Made by a program: the position numbers and the translations under genes. The notes beneath the pieces are model-generated. The model was not told where the DNA came from and searched no databases. It saw only the letters and a program-made list of their open reading frames with translations. 64,000 nucleotides of DNA from Peribolospora baueri (lineage: Eukaryota): contig JAMDHS010000041.1 of assembly GCA_029717555.1 (NCBI GenBank), positions 1 through 64,000 of the forward strand. Reading direction: 5' to 3'. Below, one piece after another: positions 18,830-53,665 of this stretch. Position 1 is the first letter of the stretch. Each line of letters opens with the position of its first letter.

Positions 18830-20310
18830 CGCACACGACGGTCGGCAACGGCGACGGCGACGGCGCTTGCCATCTCGCTGAGTGAACCTGGCCTCGTAGA
18901 ATCTTTCCGTCCATTTTTGTTTCTTTTGCCTTTGGCTTCACTGCTCTTCCCCTCGGCGTGCGTGCCTCGTCTCTTTCTCGATCTATATCTTCTCTCGGCT
19001 CGTCGCTGTCCTTACATCCTGGTAGTCGTTAACGAATGCAGGGGAACCCGCAACCCGTCGTAAGAACTAGGTTCCAGGAACGTCGTGCGGTGTGGTGTGG
19101 TCTGATCTGATCCGAAGGAGGCGCGCAAGTCATGCGCTGGGACATGCTTGCACGCCGTTTCCCGCGCATATCCCCCCCTCCGTGTCCCGACTATGCGCAG
19201 AGTACCTACACCAACCTACGTATGGAATGGAAGGTGGATGGACGGACGGACTGGTTCCGTGGTATGCCCCGGCAACGGGGGCCTGCCTGCGTGTGTGATG
19301 GATGCCCACTGCCCACAGACCATGGACTCGCGCGGCTGGGCTGGGCGGGACGCGTCGGGGGGTTATTATTATTCTCGCTGTCGCCGTCGCCGCCGTCGAC
19401 CCGATGATGTGCTGCTGCGGCGGCGACGAGCGCGGTGGCGGGCGTGGTGCCAAATTTTGGCGGCCACTCGGCCGTGTTTCTTCTTTCTACTCGTGTTATT
19501 TTATTTTATTTTATTTCTCTTTTCCCGCTTGTCTCGCTTTCATTCCTTCCTTCCCCTCCCTTTCTAGCCTCTTCAAGGCCTAGCCCAAGTCGAGTCGCTC
19601 ACGCGCGCCCGACTTTGACTGCGCACGAGGACGTTCACTAATCTATCGGCCGTCCGCCCTTTTCTTAAAGAACATTTTCCTTCTTTTCTTTTTTTGTCGC
19701 AATGTCAAGCACAGAGGCAGATGTTCCATCTCGGCAGCGTCAGTTGACTGACTGCAGCACGGATCGGCGCCGGCCAGATCGCCCTCGCCGTCGCCGTCGC
19801 CCTCTTTCCCCCTCAGCCCGCCCCGGCTTGCTGCGAATCGACGGTGCCTGCTGCCGCCTGCCTGCCTGCCTAGGCGCCTGCCTGGCTCGCCCTGCCCCTC
19901 CGCCTGCCGGCGAGGCTCGTCGCTATCATCCATCATCATCCATCCGTCGCCAAGCATATACACTCTCCTTTCCACTTCTCCACCATCACCTCCTCGCCCG
20001 AGCAAACCCCCTCCCTCCCCCGCCCTTCACGCTCTTTGCCTTCCCATACACGCTCTTTGCCCCCCACACGCCCTTGCTCTCTGCCATCCGCCTACACCGA
20101 CTATCCTACCCGCCAGCCAGGAAAGCAAGACCCATCCTCGCTCCCACCCACACTCGTCCTCCTCGGTGCCCGCCTTCTTTCGCGAACCAGAGCTAGACGC
20201 TCCCCTTCGCACCGACTTCCAACCCTCTTCGCGCCCCTCCACGGCCTCTCCCCCTCCCTTCCTCCCCGCCTGCCGCCCCCCAGTCGCGCCGTCCGCCCTC
20301 GCCCGCCGTC

Positions 20311-41949: not shown

Positions 41950-44524
41950 ATGCCCTGCCTCTCCTCCACGCTCGTCCCCGCTCCCGACTCGGCGCGCGTC
42001 AACCCGGCCTTCGATGACGCTCCTTGCCACCCCTGCGCCCTGCCCTCGCCCAACGGCCTCGAGAGCTTCTGGATGGAGACGGGCGGAGAGATGCCCGGTG
42101 GTCATGATGGCGGCCGTGTCAAACTGGAGGGAGACGCCGGTGAGGCGGATGTGGTCATCATCGGGTGAGCACCGGCGTTTGGGCCACGCCAACTTGGATG
42201 ACCGCCTTTCTCTGAGTCGTCTTCCCGTCGTCTCTCCGCTGGCTCCAACAGTTCCGGCATCACCGGCGTATCTGCCGCGTACCATCTAGTGCGAAAGCTC
42301 GCCGAGACAGAGGTCCCCCTCGACCGATACACAAAGAGCAAGCCGAGAATCGTCGTATTGGAGGCCAGAGGTTTCTGTACGTCTTTTCTTTTCTTTCTTT
42401 TCGATGCTCTCCCTCTTGGCTGAAACCGCCTTCCCCTTTCCTGCAACTTCGTCAAGGCATGGGCGCTACGGGCCGCAACGGCGGACATCTCACCCCGCTC
42501 TCTTCTCTCTCCTGGCTGGACGTCCTCCACAAGCCCCACCTCCTGCGTCACGAATGGCCTTCCACTTCCGCTAACGCAGACGACCATGTCCATCCGTCTC
42601 CCGTCGTCGTCGATGAACACGCCCTCCGCGTAGCCCAAGCCAAGCGCGTCTTCGCCCTCGAGCGCCGCACCGAGTCTACTCTGCGCCGTCTGGCCGAGTC
42701 AGACGGTGAGCAAGGAGCGTCCGTAGACCTGGTGAGCGGTGGGAACTTGCACCTATGTCAGAGGGAGGAGGAGGAAGTGGCGTATGCGAACAGCAGAGAA
42801 GCCGCCAAGAGAGACGGGTTGGAAGATGGAGAGGGGGGGAAGGTGGAGTTTTGGGATCGGAACAAGGTGAACGAGGTGCGTCGAGCGAACACGGCCGTTC
42901 GTAGGCTTTTCTTGTCCGCTCTCGGTCTGTCTCCAAGCTGTTGACGCTCTTGTTCGTCGGGTGTCGCATCACCCAACCAAAGGCCCTCTCCAACCCGACT
43001 CCCCTCCTCCGCTCCGCGTACCGCATCCCAGGCTCGAACGTCCACCCTCCCAAACTCGTCCGGCTCCTCTGGCAAGAGGCTTGCACTCAAGCCTCCAAGG
43101 CCGGTATCGCTCTCGAGCTCTTCATCCACTCCCCCGTGCTAGACGTCTCCTCCTCCTCCTCCGCAGCGCCATTCCCACGGCTGGGAGACAAGAACGCCCA
43201 GGAAGATCGATGGAAAGTTCGCACTCCCGACGGTCGTCTCCATACTCGATATGTGTTGCACGCCACCAATGCCTACCTCTCACACCTTGCCCCGCATCTC
43301 TCCGGACCCCGCGGCGTCGTTCCCACGCGCGGACAGTGCATCGCCGCTCTCCCGCGAGCGAAGCGGAGCGCAGATGGCGCTTGCGAGGAAAAGGAGGAGG
43401 GAGAGCAGCAGGACGGAGGACATCCCTGGAAGGGATGGAGGGGAGGGTGTGGAGCGAATGAGGGCTTCGAATACCTCTTCGTTCGTACAAGGCCTTCCCC
43501 TTCCTCTTCTTCTTCCTCCGCGCCTCTCATCCTCGGCGGCCTTCGCGAGGTGGCACACTGCCCAAACCCGCGCCCATACGAATGGGGCATCTCAGACGAC
43601 TCCACCCTCCGCACCGTCATATCCCGCGCCCTTCGCAAATGGCTCGTCGATCGCTTCCCGGATAGCTTTGTTGGGTTGGACGACGCTTCAGAGAGGGAAG
43701 GCTCGTTGGCCGGATGTGCTAGAGTGGTGAAGGAGTGGACTGGCGTCATGGGCTTTACGAAGGATCGTGATCCTCTTGTGAGTCGCGCGATTCTTCGTCC
43801 CGAATGGCTCCCATCTAGTGTCGTCTCCTAACCGTACCGTTCCCATACGTTTTCCTTTCACTCGATCACAGGTCGGACCGCTTCCCTCTTCTGCCAGAGA
43901 CGCAAGTGCACCTTTGAAGGGACAGTATGTAGCTGCAGGATACTCTGGACACGGAATGACGAGGGCTTTCTCCTGGTGCGTTTGTAATGCTTTCCTTTCT
44001 AAGAGGCCTAATCCTTGTCCTGGTCCGGTCGTCGGCTTCTTTTTCGCGTTTTCACGGTCGCGGATCCGAGTGGGGCAGCACGATCCTCGCTGCACTGGAG
44101 GACTGACTTACTATTGCTGTTGTTTTTATTCCCGCGCTCTCCTTTCATTTCCAGCGCCGAAGCAGTCGCAGAGATGATCCTAGCTGACATGTCCGGCAAA
44201 GCTTTCCAGGTCCCGGACTGGTTCCCCACGTCCTACCTCACTTATCATCCCCGCTCCTCCGTATTTTCCCCTTCCCTACTTCGTTCCTCCCACTCCGAGG
44301 AGGAGACCGTGGACGATGAGGTGGAGGAAGAAGGGAGGACTGTGCACCTCCGTCTCGCCTTGCGAGCCAACAGCGACGCGTCCACCGCTTCCGCCGATTC
44401 TCAAGCCACCATGGTCGAGAAGGGCTTGCGTTCCACTGTCAAGCTCGACGAATTGTCTCAGGGGATCGACGAAGGCGTCGGATCTGGCGGGACGCAGCTG
44501 AGGCTCAAATTGAAGAGGGGCTGA
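41950..44524 (+). CDS. FAD-dependent oxidoreductase (DAO family), paralogue 1, multi-exon
   Basis: LPSPN..ESFW, DVVIIG/SGITGVSAAYHL, VLEARGF/C.GATGRNGGH, VHPPKLV, VLHATNAY, VPTRGQ, WTGVMGFTKDRDPL/VGP, AAGYSGHGMTRAFS/AEAVA. Start codon uncertain. Confidence 0.9.
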
Positions 44525-45026
44525 GCGGGACCGTTGGCCGTTGGTGTTTCACTGGATATTGGACTAGCAGAACGATGCGGCCGCCCGGGCTGGACATCGT
44601 CATGATGCACCTCCCAAAGCGATCGTCCTCTTCTTTCTCGCTTGCTCCCCCCTCTGGCTGATGTATATTACGATTTCGATGAACAAACGGAATGGAATGG
44701 ACGGTGGCGTCAATACGATAACCACTCTAGGTTTGAGCTCTTGTCTACTTTTCTGTTGCAATGGTAACGGGGTGACGGGGAAGGAGCGAGAGTCGCTCAA
44801 GTTCGAGTGGGAAAGGAAGCGAGAGTCGATCAAGTTCGAGCGGGAAAGGAGAAGAGAGAGAAAAAGAGAAGGGACGTCGACGGGAAAGAGACAGCAGGGA
44901 AGCAGACCAAAGAAAAACCTATACAATCCATACTCAAGCAGCACCTACGCGAAAGCGAGCCGACCTCCCTCACCACTACCTCTCCCCTTTGCTGGGCCAG
45001 CACTCCCACCGTCTGGCCGGTCACCT

Positions 45027-46061
45027 TCACCTTGTCGCCGCCTTCACGACATCATCCCCTGCCACTTTCCCATGAGCTTCCGGGTTCCAGGCCCACCTCC
45101 TCGACCTTCCTCTACGCGCATCCTGCAAAGCCGAAGACGCCGTCTGGCCCTTGTCTGCTCCGCTCCTGCCCTCGACACCACCACTGGGAACGACGGCGCT
45201 CCTCTGCTGCCTCTGGCTTTGGCGTTGCCAGAAGAACAGCGAGCTGGAGCGCGGAATGCTCGGGGTGCAAGTAGACGATGCAGTAGACGAGGCTGCTGCG
45301 CTAGCCGTCATGGCAGGGGAAGGCGGAGGAGTGAAGGAGAACGGAGGAGGAGAGATGGGCGAGGGGGCCCGATGGAGAGAGGCCGGAGGAACAGGGCGAG
45401 GGAAAGACTTGGGAGTTGGTGCCCCAGGGAGAGCATTCAAAGTCAACCAATCCTGGTCCAAGTCAATCGCCATCGCCGAATCATTCGAGGCGGAGCCTTG
45501 TCGCGACTTGGAGAGGACGGTCGAGCGGGTCGAGCGACGGAGAGCACCGGAGCGCTCAAGGGTACAGTCGCTTCGGTGGTGGCTGACCGCCTTGGAAATG
45601 CCCACCGTGCTCCGGGATGTGCCTCGGTCGATGGCGTCGTCATACGGACCCCAGGCCTCAGAGCAGACCTCAGAGCACCACTGGGTCCAGGTCCCGAAGA
45701 TCTCTTGCTCGTCCTCCTCGAGGGTGGAGACTAGTCCGCTGTCAGCCACGAACTGGTTCCCGTGGACCCAAGTTTGAACGTGGACCTTGCGCCTAGGGGT
45801 CTGTCGGACGAGCACCACCTCCCTGGCGCGCAAGGAGTGGTTGCGGGACCTACCGCTGCTCCGCGAGGAGGTGCTACGCTGGGTGGTGGTGCTACGCTGA
45901 GAGGCAACGCTGCGACGCGAAGCGGAGCTGCCACGACGTATGAGACTAGTGATAGAGGTTTGGAGAAGAGAGTCCCTACGGGCCTGCTCGAGGGCGTCTT
46001 CGACGATCTTTAGATGCGACCGAATGTTGATGTGGGACATGTCGAGGGTCGAGACGGGCAT
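45027..46061 (-). CDS. Hypothetical Ser/Arg-rich protein
   Basis: Single long ORF from MPVSTLDMSHINIRSHLKIVEDALEQARRDS. Contains a structured-looking segment (EVVLVRQT..VHVQTWVHG...EIFGTWTQWCSEVC) within low-complexity flanks. No family recognised. Confidence 0.55.
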   Translation of the reverse strand: MPVSTLDMSHINIRSHLKIVEDALEQARRDSLLQTSITSLIRRGSSASRRSVASQRSTTTQRSTSSRSSGRSRNHSLRAREVVLVRQTPRRKVHVQTWVHGNQFVADSGLVSTLEEDEQEIFGTWTQWCSEVCSEAWGPYDDAIDRGTSRSTVGISKAVSHHRSDCTLERSGALRRSTRSTVLSKSRQGSASNDSAMAIDLDQDWLTLNALPGAPTPKSFPRPVPPASLHRAPSPISPPPFSFTPPPSPAMTASAAASSTASSTCTPSIPRSSSLFFWQRQSQRQQRSAVVPSGGVEGRSGADKGQTASSALQDARRGRSRRWAWNPEAHGKVAGDDVVKAATR

Positions 46062-46750
46062 GTTTTGAGAACGGAAAGTCGGATCAATACGCGAGAAGAA
46101 AGGGAGTGAGCGAGCGAGGTTGCTTAGGTGTGAGAAAGATGGTGAGAGGGAAGAACGGAGATCAACAACGAGCCCGCCCGACAAGCCCGTCTTTTAAGCT
46201 GTCGGACGGCGAGCGCGGCCCCTGTTATTCGAGACAATCGTGAGAGGACCTTCTATCTTGAGGGTGCAATAACAAACTGACAGACGAGGTGTGTCCAGAA
46301 GCGTCAGTTAGTTGCCAAAACAAAGCGTAGCTCAGCGCGCGAGATGTGTCCGCTTCCATGTCGAATGTTGGAGCGATGTCGACTGTTCCGAATTGAGTAG
46401 CGCTCTTATACTGTCCTCGTTATCGGCTTCAGCGGTCGTTGAGTGAGCCTCTCGCAAAGTGGAGCGGTTCAGTAGAGTCTTGCGAGCTGTAGTCGTGATG
46501 AAAGCGTAAAGGAAGCCGTCGGATGCATTGTCGTCGCGATGATGGCCTTGCCGGTTCCGGCGGAGTGGCCCGTGCGCGATTCGCATTCGCCATCCTCCTC
46601 TCCGTATCTCCAGACCAGCATGTGCAAAACTGGTGAGACCCCGCCTTAGTTTTAGCCGCCCCCTTATTTGGGCAGCTTGGGACTTGGAATTGAACCAGCC
46701 GTTCCTACGCACTGCCTGAGCCGTCGCCTGGGAGCTACAGACACCCCCGC

Positions 46751-47830
46751 TTGTCCAGGACCGTCAAATTGGACCTTCCAAAGAGAAACGAGGTGAGGGC
46801 CAAGGTGACCTACACCGTAAACTGCGACAGAGAGACCCTTCTTTTAGCCACTGCGGACGGGATCCTGAGGACGCCTTTCCTTGTTTGCATACCGGGTGAA
46901 AAGCTGCTCCCGCCGACATTAATTTCCCCGATAATGACTGAATCCAATGTCGACACGGACGTCTCTGCTTCTCGCAGGTCGCGAAGGCGCCAGAGTCGTG
47001 AGTCGCCTTTGACAGCGCGCCCCATTCGGTCTGAATCTGCGGGTGAAGATGCCAAGCGACTTTGGCACCTTGCTTTACACTGCGGAACGTAGGGAGTGCA
47101 CGGTGACGCCTCTCGCCTCTGAGCCCGATGAAGGATGTACACGACGTCCAAGCGCGGGCGGAACGAAGAAGAAGAAGAAAATCAGCAGCGATGTCCCTAG
47201 CCAAAGAACACATATCACGCTGTGTCCCGTGACCTATCCTATCTTTGGCGTTGGTTCGCACCGCTGTGATCCTATACGACCCATCCTCCTCATCCAGCCT
47301 CCCGCCAGGCAAGGCCGTCTGTCCCGGGTGCGAACGAACGTGCAAAGCACGCCCCCAGTACCCGCCATGTGTACGACCGCCCCGTATCGGGGCGCAGGTG
47401 GAGCTCCTCTTCTCCGCCCACTTCAGCCTCATTTCCTTCCTCACCTCAGACACGCCTCCCAGAACGCTACTGGCCTTTGTTCAGGCACCCCAGGCTGTCT
47501 GTCCACCCTACCAGATTGCCTCATCACTCATTACTCCAGTGCACATCTCCAAGCCGCTCACGTACACAACGATGGGACAGAGACTCCTCCGGGACATGCC
47601 TGATGATCCCAGTCTCGGTCTCGTGCAATGTACGCCAGGTGAGGGCCTTGTCATGTGCCTTGCCAACTTCGGGGACAACTATGAGGACGCAATCATCGTC
47701 TCGCAGGCAGCAATCGACAGGGGCCTCTTCTTGTATACATCGAGGAGCATTCACATCTTGACAAAGAGCGAACCGTGCCCCGAGGTAGGAGGGAGAATGC
47801 GAATGTCCGAGCATCCATGGTGGAAGTGCT
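46751..47830 (+). pseudogene. Fragmented, highly divergent RNA polymerase second-largest (beta/Rpb2-like) subunit
   Basis: TLLLATADGILRTPFLV resembles the Rpb2 IFTDAGR..RPLFIV segment. LFSAHFSLISFLTSDTPPRTLLAFVQAPQAV...KPLTYT...PGEGLVMCLANFGDNYEDAIIVSQAAIDRGLF aligns colinearly with Rpb2 ILGV.[26 protein letters not shown]...KPL.TT...PAGQNAIVAI..Y.GYNQEDS.IMNQSSIDRGLF. Truncated and split across frames. Confidence 0.75.
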
Positions 47831-47990
47831 ATCCGCGGAGGAAAGGGCGAAGGTTTGTTCTTGAGAGAACAGTGGAGGGCGACCAAGGCCCCGTCATGCA
47901 CGAGTCTCGTGAGTCTAATGGGCCTGGGTTGTGTCGCATTGGTAGACATGGCGGCCAACAACACGGCGTTGTGGTGCCACTACATATGCA

Positions 47991-49075
47991 ATGCAGACAT
48001 TCGCAGAACTCGTCCTTAGTAATAAAGGTATTGAAACTCCGAGACCTGTGGAAGATAAGGATCACCTCATACCTGTAGAGGGTACTTATGGAGCCCCTGG
48101 GAAGTTCAGTCGCATTACCGACATTTACAAAGGGAAGGGAATGGTCGCCAAAATTCAAGGCACCGTAGTGATCTACCTGCCCAGTCATAATCACTGGGCT
48201 CCCCTTTGCTCTCCAGAGGCCCAGGTAACAGTCTGCTCCGTTGTAGAGGCAGACAATGCTACGGTGAACTGCCTGACTGCGATGCGCCTCAACTCTTCGT
48301 TAATAGAGAGCTTTGCAATCCCGGTAGAAGTCATTCCACCTAGCGTGTGCATCTCAAATACGAGGCTAAGAGTCTCGCTCGACGGAGACAGTGGCCTTAC
48401 AGCGAGGCAATGTCCGCCTCTCATTCACGCACCTACAGTGCTGTCACCCGAGGGAAAGGCGAGGGTAGAGTCCGTGTCTGTCATGCCGGTAAGAGCATCT
48501 AGCGTCCTCCCCCGGTGGAATGCGAAGACTAGCCCAGGTGTAGTCCTCCACTTTCTCAGCCGCTTGTTCCTGAGCGAATTCAGCTCGATACCGTACTGTG
48601 GGCGGTATGTAACTGCATACTAGACCCCGCGTCTCAGGCCCTGGTAATTCTCTACGGGCCAGGGGGTACAGGCAAGAGCACACTCATTAGATGCCTTCAA
48701 ATGGCTCTGGCGGGGGGTTCGTGTACTCTTCCCTCTAATGCGTTCACGAGAGCGTCGAAGACCCTAGGCAATGACGTCGCTCAAGCATTACCGTCTACAA
48801 GACTGGCCGTGTCTGGAGACGTGGAGCTTGGGGGCAATATCAACCTAGGGCTCATCAAGGCAGTTACTGGCAGGGACTCGGTGCCTATACCTCCATCGTC
48901 AGCTGCGATCAGTAGCACAGTGGTAATAGGCAGTAACTCGCTTCCCTTTAGGGTTGCAGTCAGGGACTGGTCTTCAGAGGTTATCGTAAGGCGGGCTGTA
49001 GTTGTACACATGAATGTGAACACTACGGCCCTCCCGCGCGTAGTGATGCCTGACAGGCCAGAGCATTGGCTAGAC
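47991..49075 (+). pseudogene. D5-like superfamily-3 helicase fragment, copy A (frameshift ~48570)
   Basis: After correcting a 1-nt deletion: FLSRLF....QLDTVLWAVCNCILDPASQALVILYGPGGTGKST (Walker A), RLAVSGD (Walker B position), IKAVTGRD (D5 K.LTGGD-like), VVIGSN (motif C), IVRRAVVVHM (Arg finger). Confidence 0.8.
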
Positions 49076-49985
49076 TAAGGTATATGAAGCATTGGCTAGA
49101 TATGAAAAGAGCCGGCGTTCACGTCCATGTGCACATCTATGGCTCGCCTCACGATTGCCTCTGATGACCAGTCTTCAACTACAATGCTGGAGGGAAGTGA
49201 GTTGCTACCTATCACCACCGAGCTACTGATTGTAGCGGATGATGGAGGTATTGGCACTGAGTCCCTGCCGGTAACTGCCTTGATAAGTCCCAGGTTCACA
49301 TTGACCCCCAAGTTCCACGTCTCCGGACACGGCTAGTCTTGTAGATGTTAATGCCTGAGCTACATCAACACCTAGGGCCTTCGGCGCTCTTGTAAACGCG
49401 TCAGAAGGGAGGGTGCACGAGCACCCCGCCAGAGCTGCCTGCAGGCGTCTGATAAGAGTGCTCTTACCTGTACCTCCTGGCCCGTAGAGGATGACCATAC
49501 GAACCTGAGATGCAGGGTCTAGTAGACAGTTGCCTACTGCCCATAGTACAGTGTCGAGCTGAGTCCTATCGGGGAACAGACGGCTGAGAAAGTGAGGACT
49601 ACACCTGGGCTAGTCCTTAAGTTCCACCGAGGGAGGATGCTAGATACTCTTACCGGCATGACAGACACGGACTCTACCCTCGCCTTTCCCTCGGGTGACA
49701 GCACTGTAGGTGCGTGAATGAGAGGCGGACATTGCCTCGCTGTAAGGCCACTGTCTCCGTCGAGCGAGACTCTTAGCCTCGTATTTGAGATGCACACGCT
49801 AGGTGGAATGACTTCTACCGGGATTGCAAAGCTCTCTATTAACGAAGAGTTGAGGCGCATCGCAGTCAGGCAGTTCACCGTAGCATTGTCTGCCTCTACA
49901 ACGGAGCAGACTGTTACCTGGGCCTCTGGAGAGCAAAGGGGAGCCCAGTGATTATGACTGGGCAGGTAGATCACTACGGTGCCTT
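48157..49985. repeat. Perfect 339-bp inverted repeat (48157-48495 vs 49647-49985) inside ~1-kb imperfect inverted arms
   Basis: Base-by-base comparison by eye shows no mismatch over the tract. The ORF track gives identical antisense peptides (48191-48424 and 49718-49951). Confidence 0.9.
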
Positions 49986-50118
49986 AGACCTTGGCTACCA
50001 TTCCCTTCCCTTTATAGATGCTGATACGGCTGAACTTCCCAGGGACTCCATAAGTGCCCTCCACAGGTGTAAGGTGGGCCTCATCCTCTACGAGTCTTGG
50101 GGTCTCACAGACACTGGG
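49107..50118 (-). pseudogene. D5-like superfamily-3 helicase fragment, copy B (inverted; stop at ~49985, frameshifts ~49595 and ~49303)
   Basis: MVILYGPGGTGKSTLIRRLQAAL...RLAVSGDVELG/NVNLGLIKAVTGRDS...VVIGSNSLP...AIVRRAIDVHM. Homologous to copy A in opposite orientation. Confidence 0.8.
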
Positions 50119-51132
50119 TGCCTTACCCTCGGGTGACAACACGGGTGGTCAACAAGACCCTGAGCTCCGTTGGCGCCGTCGGTCTCGGCGCGGTGGCCGA
50201 TGTGCTGGCCGCGGAGGAGCATATAGCGTCGGCGTCGCAGCGGCGGCGGTGGGATGTGTGGGCGCTTCGAAGAGCAAGACCAGAACGGCCGCTTGACGGT
50301 TTTTGGAGATGCTTCGTCAGGGGGGGGGACGGGGGGGGAAGAATTTCAGCAAGCGACTCCTACCCTGACTTCTCCCTTCAACTACCGCTCCACTCACTCG
50401 TTCCACCTCGATTTCGCCCGAAAGGCGGCGAGCCGTCGTATGTATCCTTGGCTCTCCGGAGTGAGCATCGACAACGCCTCGGCGGGGATGGCGGAGGGAA
50501 CTGCGTCCATGACGCTTTCCGGATCGAATGGCTGCGTCGTGAGCGCACAGCCGCGTGGTAGTGGCGACCTGCGACCGAGGTGGTAAGAGAAGGAGAGGAG
50601 ACCGAACGACGATGGCAAGCAGCCGACCGAGTCCCGACTCGTGTGTTCCTTACTCATCGCGTGAGCACATCACGTGGACGGCCATTTAACCGCTCTGCGC
50701 GCACGGGCCACCTCGAATGCATTGGTGCCGTGATTTCGACGGAAGTTGTTGGCCGCCATGCATTCGGACGGGCTGTGGACGACAGAGAACTGAAAGGTTG
50801 AGGTCAGGACGGCGAAGCGGTGACTCCGCTGGTTCCGAGGCGCGCCGGACGAGGCGGATATGGCAGGGTACGGCGTTCCCTGTCGTCAGCGCCCTTCAAA
50901 TACCGGCCCCGGTTCCTTTCCCATATAACATCTTTCTTGCTGGCAAGTAGACGGCCTGGACGACGGCTTTGAACCCATCCTAGAGGAAGCACGACGTGAG
51001 AGGCCTCTGTATCTTCTCGTGCCCTGACTTCCACCTCACTCTTCGAGACACAGGCCTCACTATTCTTTGACTGCTGGTCTGGCCGGCGACAGTGCGACTC
51101 GACATCACTTTTACAAGCCAAATTAAGACGTC

Positions 51133-53665
51133 ATGGATTGCACGGCAAAGGATCCCACCCCAAACGTTCCTTCCTCTGACTCAATGCACGTCAACCCCGC
51201 CTTCTTTACCGTGCCCTCTGACAAGCCATGTCCGCTGCCAAGGAAGAATGGCACGGAGAGTTACTGGCAGAGGACAAGCCCTGGAACCGAGTGCGGGATT
51301 GGCAGCGAGGACGCTCGTCACATCAAATGGCAGGGTCAAACAGTTGCGGAGATGGACGTCGATGTGGTTATTATTGGGTGCGTCGCGAGGCTCAATCGGT
51401 GACCGTTGGGAGAGGCAACGTGCGAAGCTATGCTGATCTTTCGTCTCTATGCGTGCTTCATCTTTCTTTTGATATTTTCTCATACGTCTGCTCGCACGCC
51501 ATCGATACGATCACAGCTCAGGCATCACTGGAACTTCAGCAGCCTACCACCTCTCTCGCAAGCTTTGTGCCACTGACAACGATGCTGCCAATGGACAAGG
51601 GCATATCAAGATCGGACGACAGCTCAACGTCGCTGTAGTCGAGGCAAGGGACTTCTGTGCGCTTTGTTGTTTCTCACCTCATCGGTTGCGCTTTGATGCT
51701 TTAGTGCAGCCGCCTATTTCCTATTCCTCGGCCTTAACAGAAACCTGACTATCGGTTTTTCTAACCTCAGGCTCTGGAGCGACAGGCCGGAATGGGGGCC
51801 ACATGACCCCCCTCTCGGCGTTGGCTTGGAACGACGTGATCTCCAAACCTCACTTGCTGGAACCCTTTGACGGTAGTCCAGCTCCCTCCCGTCCATCTTT
51901 GGCACATGCAGACATGCAGACACGGCAAAGTGGAAGAGCCGGGCCAGCGGACAATGCTAGTATGGCTGAAGCCAAGAGGATTTTTGCTCTGGAGCGGAGG
52001 ACCGAAGCGGTATTGTTGGCTCTGGCACAAAGTGATGGCCAACAAGGCCAGAGCGTAGATCTGACGCGTGGAGGCAATCTGCATCTTGTCCAGACCGATG
52101 AGGAGGAGGCAGAGTGGAAGAGCAGCTGGCAGGCTGCCAAGGAAGCTGGCTTGGAGGAAGGAGAGGGAGGCGGTATTGAATTGTGGGATAGGGAGAAGAC
52201 GGTTGAGGTGAACCTTTCCGCCTTCCATTGTGGAGGAATCAGCTGACCAAAATAGGCCGGGTCGTCGTTCCCATCGCACAGGCACTTTCCACTCGCTCTC
52301 CACATTTCCTTTCCGCCTTTCGCATCCCTGGTAACAATCTCCACCCTCTCAAACTCGTCCGCCTGCTTTGGTCCCGCGCTCTTGCGCTGACCACGTCCTC
52401 TGCAGGATCATCGACTCCGGCAGTTTCTCTCAAACTCTACATTCACACGCCGGTAACAGCAATCGAAGCGGTAGAGAAAGGTGATACGGTCCACAGCGAC
52501 CTCGACCGCCCGTGGCTCATCCGCACCGGTAGAGGACCGATATTTAAGACAAGCTATATCATCCATGCGACCAATGGCTATGTCAGTCACCTCGTACCCC
52601 ATCTCGCGGGCCCGCATGGTGTCATTCCGACGAGGGCACAAGTCCTCGCCGTCCGACCTGCGGTCTTGGCCGAAAGCAAGACGGAGTCGCGAGGAGTCTG
52701 GAAGGGCTGGAAGGGAGGGTTATATGTCAATCATGATTACGAGGTCAGGGTCGACCGCCACCGGTCCTTCTTCCACCTTGGGCTCTGTCAAGCATGATTG
52801 AACAATGTGGCTCGCCACCTCCTTTTGTCCAATGTTCTTCACACTTCCAGTACCTCTTCCCCCGCTCGCCTTCAGGTTCAGCATCTGTCACCACTGGCAT
52901 TCCGCCCATTATCTTCGGCGGCATGCGTGAAAGCGCATCACCTTCCTATGAATGGAATGTCACCGATGATTCGACTCTGAACCCTATCGTGGCCATCCGA
53001 CTTCGTACTTGGCTGGCGGATAGATGGCCAGAACAGTTTGGACGCCTCGGGCGGGGTACTGACAGCGCCAACGACGAGGAGGATGGTAGGGCTGTCAAAC
53101 TAGAGGAAGAAGCCGTGGAAATGGAGTGGACCGGGATTATGGGCTTCACGCAAGGACGGGATCCCATCGTGAGTAGGTTTGCAACGCCGTTACAGTTGTT
53201 TTAATCCAGTACTGTCTCGGAATCGATGTTCATTAGTAACCGACTTTGTGTTTTATATCTTCACAGGTCGGACCTCTGCCTCCCCCCACAGGGCAGAGCC
53301 CTCACTCGCTTGCTGGCCAATATGTGGCGGTAGGCTACAGCGGCCACGGCATGACTCGGGCATTCTCTTGGTAAATGGGTTTGCTTGCAGCGCTCAGGCA
53401 CCTATAGCAGAACCGAGTGACAACTTGCCTGACCTATTCTCATCTGGTCATTCGAACTACAAAACCACCTGTTCAGCGCCGAGGCGGTTGTCGACATGGT
53501 CTTGGCCGACATACGCGCGGAGAACTGGGAGATACCAGAATGGTGAGGACATCGAGCTTTGCAAGCCGGTAAGGAACGTGATTTGCTGAGCGGCAAGTCT
53601 CTCGCCGTCTCTGACGCGCGTTCCGCCGCAGGTTCCCGACCTGCTATCTTTCGACAGCCTGTTGA
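51133..53665 (+). CDS. FAD-dependent oxidoreductase (DAO family), paralogue 2, multi-exon
   Basis: DVVIIG/SGITGTSAAYHL, EARDF/CSGATGRNGGH, LHPLKLV, IIHATNGY, IPTRAQ, WTGIMGFTQGRDPI/VGP, VGYSGHGMTRAFS/AEAVV...W/FPTCYLSTAC*. Most intron positions shared with paralogue 1. Confidence 0.9.

Follow-up and report, generated by a model that had tools for sequence, protein, structure and literature searches.

A truncated piece of a short Rpb2-like RNA polymerase subunit, joined to two helicase remnants, in a dispersed repeat of Peribolospora baueri

Does an open stretch of RNA polymerase (RNAP) second-largest subunit in a fungal genome encode a working enzyme of viral type, or is it the remnant of something that once arrived from outside? 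This question is raised by 64,000 nucleotides of fungal nuclear DNA from Peribolospora baueri (contig JAMDHS010000041.1, positions 1 to 64,000; GC 0.54-0.65; hereafter the window), in which a preliminary description made from the letters alone had reported a beta-like, Rpb2-type subunit with rewritten motifs at 46751-47830 and had taken it for a long-diverged functional enzyme. The block at 47348-50139 is, in our judgement, very likely a non-functional endogenous relic, in which truncated pieces of three genes from linear double-stranded DNA (dsDNA) virus-like elements were end-joined into one copy of a dispersed repeat. The locus itself is dead DNA, and its value lies in the family from which the pieces came and in the host lineage that received them.

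A fragment of a short beta-like subunit

The polymerase piece is carried by a stop-to-stop open reading frame (ORF) at 47233-48078 on the plus strand and corresponds to the start of the hybrid-binding region. The motifs on which the preliminary description rested are present as reported: NYED and IDRGLF are intact, giving an acidic ED pair (which we take to lie near the active-site metal in Pol II) and then the IDRG that begins Rpb2 domain 6, and the rewritten segment preceding them reads TSDTPPRTLLAFVQAPQAV (47443-47499, motif PPR..QAPQAVCPP). Single comparisons with Pfam and the PDB indicate only a weak likeness, not separable from chance by those means: Rpb2_6 scores the ORF at E=0.02 (14 bits, under the cut-off), and phmmer aligns the segment with NYED and IDRGLF to S. 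pombe Rpb2 812-842 at E=0.14. Searched against 1.84 billion representative proteins, by contrast, the ORF returns 84 phmmer matches at E<=1e-3, 35 of them at <=1e-10 and the best at 2e-30, and the full-length matches have 734-864 residues. When 26 full-length relatives were aligned (alignment A1) and turned into a family hidden Markov model (HMM), its sole match in the six frames of the window was this piece, which corresponds to profile positions 381-529 of 807 (E=1.2e-48). In tblastn, 41 of 41 relatives with at least 700 residues likewise matched only 47308-48039, at 24-42% identity. By phmmer and tblastn the fragment is 33-42% identical to these short subunits; it is single copy, has a GC content of 0.565 and has no relative above 43% identity. 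It keeps seven of the seven invariant family columns of this stretch, together with the family motifs PPRP..Q..QAVC.P, NYEDS and WWK. These similarities assign the fragment to a family of short (~770-864-residue) beta-like subunits, of which the apparently rewritten segment is simply the consensus; the earlier view that it is not decay of a host RPB2 is thereby borne out.

The family itself has a consistent architecture. Its A1 consensus reads D-R-P-P-R-P-L..S.Q..QAVC.P ... NYEDS..VS....D.G.FS ... WWK ... GDKL.T.HGQKG ... GG.V..GEME ... C..C.RL..LC.C, and GDK....HGQKG is invariant across the 26 aligned relatives. Against the PDB, the A1 profile matches archaeal Rpo2 (5e-40) and RPC2/RPB2 (~1e-34); because profile positions 223-787 align to Rpo2 445-1096, the N-terminal half is strongly shortened. 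Pfam Rpb2_6 was found in 22 of the 22 members scanned and Rpb2_7 in 14, and LEF-8 in none of the 22 at E<=0.01. An AlphaFold2 (AF2) model of one full-length relative (P0003), computed with A1 (mean predicted local distance difference test score, pLDDT, 79.4; predicted template-modelling score, pTM, 0.76), retrieved with Foldseek the second-largest subunits of Pol I, II and III and of archaeal and poxvirus RNAP (E ~5e-29 to 5e-27). Compared with viral models, it came closest to pithovirus-like, ascovirus, mimivirid and poxvirus RPB2 (3e-29 to 4e-26), so that subunits of nucleocytoplasmic large DNA viruses and of cells scored alike. Together, profile and model show that the family consists of true Rpb2 homologues, which keep the catalytic core with a much reduced N-terminal half.

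What lies in the window is a small part of such a protein. About 150 of ~810 residues are present (~18% of the length), and profile positions 1-380 and 530-807 had no match in any frame of the window with filters off. Neither the family HMM nor tblastn found the GDK..HGQKG catalytic loop, the GG.R.GEME segment or the Rpb2_7 zinc clamp there; the window thus lacks the double-psi-barrel loop (GDK....HGQKG in the family) and the zinc-ribbon clamp/anchor of Rpb2 domain 7 that a working Rpb2 carries. Because these parts are absent, the fragment is not a working enzyme at this locus; it is a fossil piece. The preliminary description had called the frame otherwise open, and this holds in part: it is open from stop to stop, with no stop inside the 150 conserved residues, but its first Met, at 47572, already falls among the conserved residues, with none upstream of them, its first 115 nt are host repeat, and it covers ~18% of the subunit. 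The other polymerase-like segment proposed, at 46751-46960 ('DGILRTPFLV', 46856-46885) gave no match to the family HMM at E<=10 with filters off, and it lies in repeat DNA of 5-10x depth. An AF2 model of 47356-47895 built with 37 relatives (pLDDT 62.8, pTM 0.39), which depicts the piece outside its protein context, had no Foldseek match in the PDB (best E=9); this does not speak against an Rpb2 fold, which the model of the full-length relative displays.

Closer relatives were sought among viruses and phages. The ORF had no match in PHROGs, nor by tblastn in 50,697 phage records; a single-sequence scan of IMG/VR gave six pattern matches, of which none was confirmed, and word-indexed protein searches with the helicase and polymerase ORFs found none of the 'longer' lengths. 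Among the best 80 of 399 matched IMG/VR loci there was only ordinary giant-virus RPB2 at 22-28% identity, and no closer relative.

A tree on 147 shared columns, for which 71 of 90 rows were kept and rows with fewer than 80% of these columns filled were dropped, divides the family into two major clades (SH-aLRT 99 each). The window falls in the clade of Aspergillus hancockii and the metagenome contig L083, inside which the branching is not resolved, on an end branch of 0.98 against a median of 0.51. Members with a named source come from A. hancockii (11.9-kb contig), Melampsora americana (14.4 kb), Globomyces sp. (24.1 kb) and Chytriomyces sp. (14.6 kb), as well as from Closterium sp., there on contigs of 129 kb and 1.19 Mb; the contigs of the other members cluster at 17-28 kb. 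GC content ranges from 0.33 (L081, L082) to 0.54 (L086), and the family spans hosts or habitats of very different base composition. Four gene models, from Closterium, Chytriomyces, Globomyces and Melampsora (P0047, P0056, P0074 and P0081; 961-1489 residues), place a family B DNA polymerase (PolB) and the beta-like subunit in one protein. As the two genes are adjacent and co-directional on metagenome contigs, with a gap of ~40-50 nt, these models are probably merged predictions and not true fusions.

A patchwork inserted into a dispersed repeat

Polymerase similarity stops near 47830-47895, close to where the preliminary description saw it fade (~47830), and similarity to a superfamily 3 (SF3), D5-like helicase begins at 47982. 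This helicase, copy A, matches those of three related metagenome contigs by tblastn (1e-24 for L083, 7e-23 for L085, 2e-11 for L086) and the PHROGs family phrog_1156 'DNA primase' (1.9e-12, positions 540-668 of 855) along with 13 further PHROGs; Pfam DUF5906 reaches 20 bits, under the cut-off, and the helicase family profile matched no solved structure in the PDB. It was said to continue straight on from the polymerase frame, which is not the case: the N part lies in the frame 47946-48623 and the P-loop part in 48533-49078, and both differ from the polymerase frame. Its Walker A, Walker B and sensor motifs (GPGGTGKST, SGDVE, GSNSLP) are kept. In copy A the frame shifts by 1 nt somewhere from 48507 to 48550; the inverted copy B has the same frameshift at the equivalent place and a second near 49310-49332. 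Both lack the C-terminal ~30-100 residues, so that motifs survive in two copies of which neither is an intact frame.

The two copies form inverted arms of 86% identity over 995 nt (blastn), and their likeness is uneven. Outer stretches of 427 nt (48122-48548 and 49594-50020) are 96% alike and identical over 48220-48420, probably through later gene conversion, and the rest is ~80% alike. In the P-loop part, differences fall at codon positions 1, 2 and 3 in the proportion 19/10/64 (chi-square p=2e-12), and the arms give a Nei-Gojobori omega of 0.12 at dS 0.86. Given this third-position bias, the copies diverged while they were working genes, in two different source copies, and are thus two source genes joined head to head, not the product of an in-place duplication. 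Repeat-induced point mutation had been considered as a cause of the divergence (112 transitions, running in all four directions, against 29 transversions; CpA context 36% against a 25% background), and was superseded by the codon-position pattern.

The edges of the block emerge from contigs of four public runs of one study, which were placed on 43000-53500; one pair of runs comes from the same organism and the other pair from a relative, organism B. Single-copy depth in the four runs is ~110/85/98/75; depth over 44755-47211 is 5-10x that level and over 50020-50720 2-5x, and the sequence on both sides of the block is therefore a dispersed repeat. In runs X3 and X4, contigs of depth 306 and 256 join 47347 directly to 50140 with four shared letters, and a contig of run X2 joins 47351 to 50236 via seven letters equal to 50144-50150. 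Other repeat copies thus do not contain the block, which makes 47348-50139 an insertion. CACG stands at both of its edges (47348-47351 and 50140-50143), and the route of insertion was end joining at this 4-nt microhomology. Polymerase similarity begins 10-45 nt inside the left edge, and the insert has a GC content of 0.547 against 0.589 for the window. Logan contigs of the two same-organism runs also span 47292-48186 and 48466-49676, departing from the window at 0-1 positions, which speaks for real DNA.

The repeat, of ~3.2 kb, holds two overlapping frames of 388 residues each, at 44568-45734 (+) and 45027-46193 (-). It had no Pfam match at E<=0.001 and no second copy inside the window, and it could be a transposon, a gene family or further element-derived DNA; an atlas look-up with a repeat ORF gave a top score of 0.86, which serves as a lead only.

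Within the insert, a mid-gene polymerase piece abuts a same-strand helicase truncated at its 5' end, followed by the reversed helicase of a second source (Table 1). When all ORFs of at least 80 residues from nine related contigs (L081-L089) were compared with the window by tblastn, only the beta-like and helicase pieces were found, and no PolB, beta'-like or capping-enzyme-like gene. The beta-like and helicase genes are not neighbours on any of four related contigs: PolB separates them in L084-L086, where they run on opposite strands, and a distance of ~8 kb does so in L083. Since native contigs lack this adjacency, and both pieces are truncated here, their junction is a ligation patchwork, as the preliminary description had suspected. 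We envisage that small linear dsDNA virus-like elements supplied ~150 residues from the middle of a subunit and two diverged SF3 helicases, that these three truncated fragments were ligated end to end with the helicases head to head, and that the patchwork would then have entered one repeat copy of an Ustilaginomycotina genome.

Organism B bears on the age of the relic. It carries 48580-49075, the spacer, 49114-49952 and then sequence like 48187-47944, joined to the repeat at 46602-46756. As its helicase part sits at the same repeat, the relic appears older than the split of the two organisms. The helicase part differs between them at 40/496, 58/839 and 31/244 positions (7-13%) and the host flanks at 65/2881 and 77/1810 (2-4%), so that the relic evolves faster than the host genes, as in drift, and seems to have drifted since that split. 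The breakpoint in organism B at 48580 adjoins the end of the homogenised tract at 48548.

Table 1. Coordinates of the inserted patchwork, its parts and the surrounding repeat
Feature	Position in window	Strand	Basis
Dispersed host repeat, left part	44755-47347	.	5-10x depth, four runs, many small variant contigs
Inserted patchwork of element gene fragments, 2792 bp	47348-50139	.	Joints in run contigs
Rpb2/beta-like RNAP subunit fragment	47392-47844	+	Family HMM; ORF residues 54-204
NYED	47677-47688	+	Frame of ORF 47233-48078
IDRGLF	47713-47730	+	Frame of ORF 47233-48078
WWK	47818-47826	+	Family motif within fragment
SF3 (D5-like) helicase copy A	47982-49075	+	tblastn; residues ~58-441 of 469-538-residue relatives
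Spacer between helicase arms, 95 nt	49022-49116	.	I3 arms 48830-49021 / 49117-49308
SF3 helicase copy B, inverted	49114-50007	-	tblastn, inverted repeats I1-I4, translations
Dispersed host repeat, right part	50140-50720	.	2-5x depth and joints

Other explanations of the locus

Several observations weigh against the relic as we have described it or against parts of its history. Organism B lacks 46757-48579, the polymerase piece included (a joint of 46756 to 48580 at single-copy depth), and the piece could have been added later in the lineage studied here or deleted in organism B. The 150 conserved residues are free of stops with every invariant column in place, and some constraint is possible. 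The junctions are confirmed by runs that possibly represent the assembly's own source sample, in which case they are not independent of it. As to the source, no capsid or packaging gene was recognised on the related contigs by Pfam or PDB profile searches, and it could therefore be a virus or a plasmid; the capping enzyme attributed to it is a call from KxDG and S-adenosylmethionine (SAM) motifs seen by eye and a LEF-4 match at E=0.08.

Among the alternatives, the one that fares best, while still improbable, is that the relic has been retained as useful, with hairpin RNA from the head-to-head helicases feeding RNA interference against incoming elements. Small RNAs derived from endogenous viral elements are known in other eukaryotes, the inverted arrangement occurs in two organisms, and 427 nt of the arms have been homogenised. 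Against such retention, the inner arms are only ~80% alike, and the helicase part has diverged between the two organisms beyond its flanks, the pattern that drift would leave.

An assembly chimera, or a contaminant joined to fungal DNA with no chromosomal insertion, is very unlikely. Some library types are known to produce palindromes artefactually, and the assembly itself may have been built from the two best-matching runs. However, an artefactual fold-back would not be expected to yield arms that are 86% alike with codon-structured differences, nor would a chimera account for the helicase palindrome that organism B has on the same repeat, 7-13% diverged. Depth over the insert in run X1 (54-245 against ~110) is at the single-copy level of the flanks, and host genes are present on both sides.

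Little can be said for a functional, long-diverged viral-type beta-like subunit gene resident in the genome, the reading first proposed for this locus, and we consider it barely tenable. Its frame is open and retains the ED pair and all invariant columns of the stretch; set against this, it comprises only profile positions 381-529 of 807, with the catalytic loop, GG.R.GEME segment and zinc clamp missing from the window, starts in host repeat without an upstream start codon, sits within an insert in a repeat, has no beta'-like partner in the window, and is absent from organism B. Least probable of all is that RPB2, RPA2 or RPC2 of the host gave rise to the piece as a decaying duplicate or a processed pseudogene, a reading which the weak direct matches to cellular Rpb2 (0.02, 0.14) would favour, whereas similarity to the short family is 25-40 orders of magnitude stronger (2e-30, 1.2e-48), the family-specific PPR..Q..QAVC.P stands where the cellular motif would, and the piece is joined to a helicase known from the same kind of contigs. 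We therefore return to a patchwork relic of element genes, whose source can be described from its relatives.

Source elements, host and wider context

Full-length family members lie on JGI metagenome contigs of 20.3 kb (L084), 23.7 kb (L085), 24.6 kb (L086) and 23.9 kb (L083), the first three mutually syntenic. Their shared order is a ~730-residue ORF with KxDG and SAM-binding motifs, two unknown ORFs and a ~470-residue P-loop helicase on the minus strand, then PolB, the beta-like gene, four unknown ORFs and a beta'-like gene of ~600-650 residues. The PolB, which reaches 1.6e-38 in Pfam and has its nearest matches in archaeal PolB and Pol delta/alpha, is predicted to be of the primer-dependent type, the beta'-like gene is separate from the beta-like one (L085 16296-18095, Rpb1_2 at 7e-9), and the ~730-residue ORF is a probable capping enzyme. 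The beta-like and beta'-like proteins of these native ~20-25-kb elements would together form a minimal two-subunit RNAP, and a gene set with its own PolB, SF3 helicase and probable capping enzyme points to replication and transcription that may be independent of the nucleus. L084 has a perfect 394-nt inverted repeat (1-394 and 18891-19284) whose arms are symmetric about the contig centre; this placement implies a complete linear genome of 20,328 bp with 12 genes and 916-nt terminal repeats, its first 522 nt being inferred. L085 has a diverged inverted copy of the end gene at both ends (73-83%). Across 17 ORFs of the related contigs, Pfam at E<=0.5 gave only the LEF-4 match and P-loop noise, and profiles of two conserved ORFs had no match in the PDB.

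One conserved ORF of these contigs (ORF-B, ~525-700 residues; L084 2741-4837 on the minus strand, with homologues in L083, L085 and L086) ends in a basic low-complexity tail. Its motif GQSPY...AFSF resembles by eye the active-site loop of uracil-DNA glycosylase, with Ser for Asp, and is without Pfam or PDB support.

Among known systems, the RPB2 of Nucleocytoviricota has the same fold and catalytic motifs. No other viral subunits matched the family model better in structure, and genes for a D5-type helicase, PolB and a capping enzyme (probable in the related elements) accompany that of the subunit in both groups. The two differ in scale, with RPB2 of ~1100-1400 residues against 770-864 in the short family, identity of 22-28%, and genomes of >100 kb against source contigs of 20-25 kb. 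Endogenous relics named 'fundsalphavirus' are described from six non-Dikarya fungal phyla and the moss Physcomitrella (Gong, Zhang, Han 2020, PMC7017919). As that account presents them, these too are relics in fungal nuclear genomes with PolB, D5 helicase-primase, RPB2, RPB1 and a SAM methyltransferase, with a gene order unlike that of other giant viruses and a PolB nearest to that of pithovirus; the SNF2 helicase and RPB5 that it also reports were not found on the related contigs here. Compared by description only, they may represent the same or a related group.

Small linear dsDNA with terminal inverted repeats (TIRs), a reduced multisubunit-type RNAP of its own, a capping enzyme and a DNA polymerase are also attributes ascribed to the yeast virus-like elements (VLEs). 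The RNAP of pGKL2, as portrayed by Sykora (2018, PMC6211774), consists of a beta-beta' fusion and a small subunit (K2ORF6p/K2ORF7p), whereas the beta-like and beta'-like genes of the related elements are separate, and the VLEs are credited with a protein-primed PolB and an SF2 helicase (PMC6211774, PMC13348850) in place of the primer-dependent-type PolB and SF3 helicase seen here. An identity with the pGKL2 polymerase accordingly failed on the separate beta'-like gene and the PolB type. Baculovirus and nudivirus LEF-8 is a beta-like subunit of similar size (~850-1050 residues) in a four-subunit viral RNAP; identity with LEF-8 was rejected, since none of the 22 members scanned matched it in Pfam and the structural match of the P0003 model (E ~1e-12 to 1e-11) is far weaker than those to NCLDV and cellular subunits. 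The helicases, for their part, match the C-terminal halves of phage families of D5-like primase-helicases, as found in large DNA viruses and phages, in their P-loop, Walker B and sensor region; the relatives here differ in having only 469-538 residues, in which Pfam recognised no primase domain.

It is possible, if on balance somewhat doubtful, that a so far undescribed clade of linear dsDNA elements, ~20-28 kb long and bearing TIRs, left the fragment as its footprint in the chromosome. Such elements, which would combine a minimal two-subunit RNAP with a capping enzyme, an SF3 helicase and a PolB of the primer-dependent type, would be either giant-virus relatives in miniature or a second, independent kind of cytoplasmic element in fungi, infecting or residing in Dikarya, chytrids and streptophyte algae. 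In the full-text literature searched, with most subscription journals outside its scope, elements of 20-25 kb that carry a short two-subunit polymerase are not described, and the term 'RNA polymerase' occurs nowhere in the text of a 2026 preprint on polinton-like viruses. Heneghan (2026, PMC13348850) states that Ascomycota and Basidiomycota have no known dsDNA viruses, and why Dikarya escape infection is a question raised in Myers (2026, PMC13533422). The window shows that a basidiomycete lineage acquired DNA from elements equipped to transcribe and replicate themselves, and the second RNAP subunit of these contigs is shorter, by about one third, than that of any cell or giant virus. Members from A. 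hancockii, M. americana, Globomyces and Chytriomyces lie on small separate contigs (12-24 kb), and living episomes may therefore exist in culturable fungi. If real, such episomes would bear on the origin of the transcription machinery of yeast killer plasmids and on the smallest genome with a multisubunit RNAP.

Besides an FAD oxidoreductase and a gene with a Voldacs domain, the host genes of the window comprise an RGS/DEP protein, eIF2B and an intron-split exportin-T. An atlas look-up with a host exon led to importin/exportin clusters and to no useful taxon, and scans of the window for Rfam families and tRNAs gave no match. Proteins of Violaceomyces, Pseudozyma, Ustilago, Meira and Tilletia share at most 60-61% identity with the 834-residue RGS frame, and for this reason the host is placed, by protein similarity, among the Ustilaginomycotina, as a basidiomycete without a close sequenced relative in the protein collection compared. 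Similarity to FAD-dependent oxidoreductase (DAO) occurs on both flanks of the repeat and insert, with the N-terminal two thirds at 51749-52794 (Pfam) and C-terminal-looking motifs at 42905-44177 (by eye); the pieces may be two paralogous genes or one split gene.

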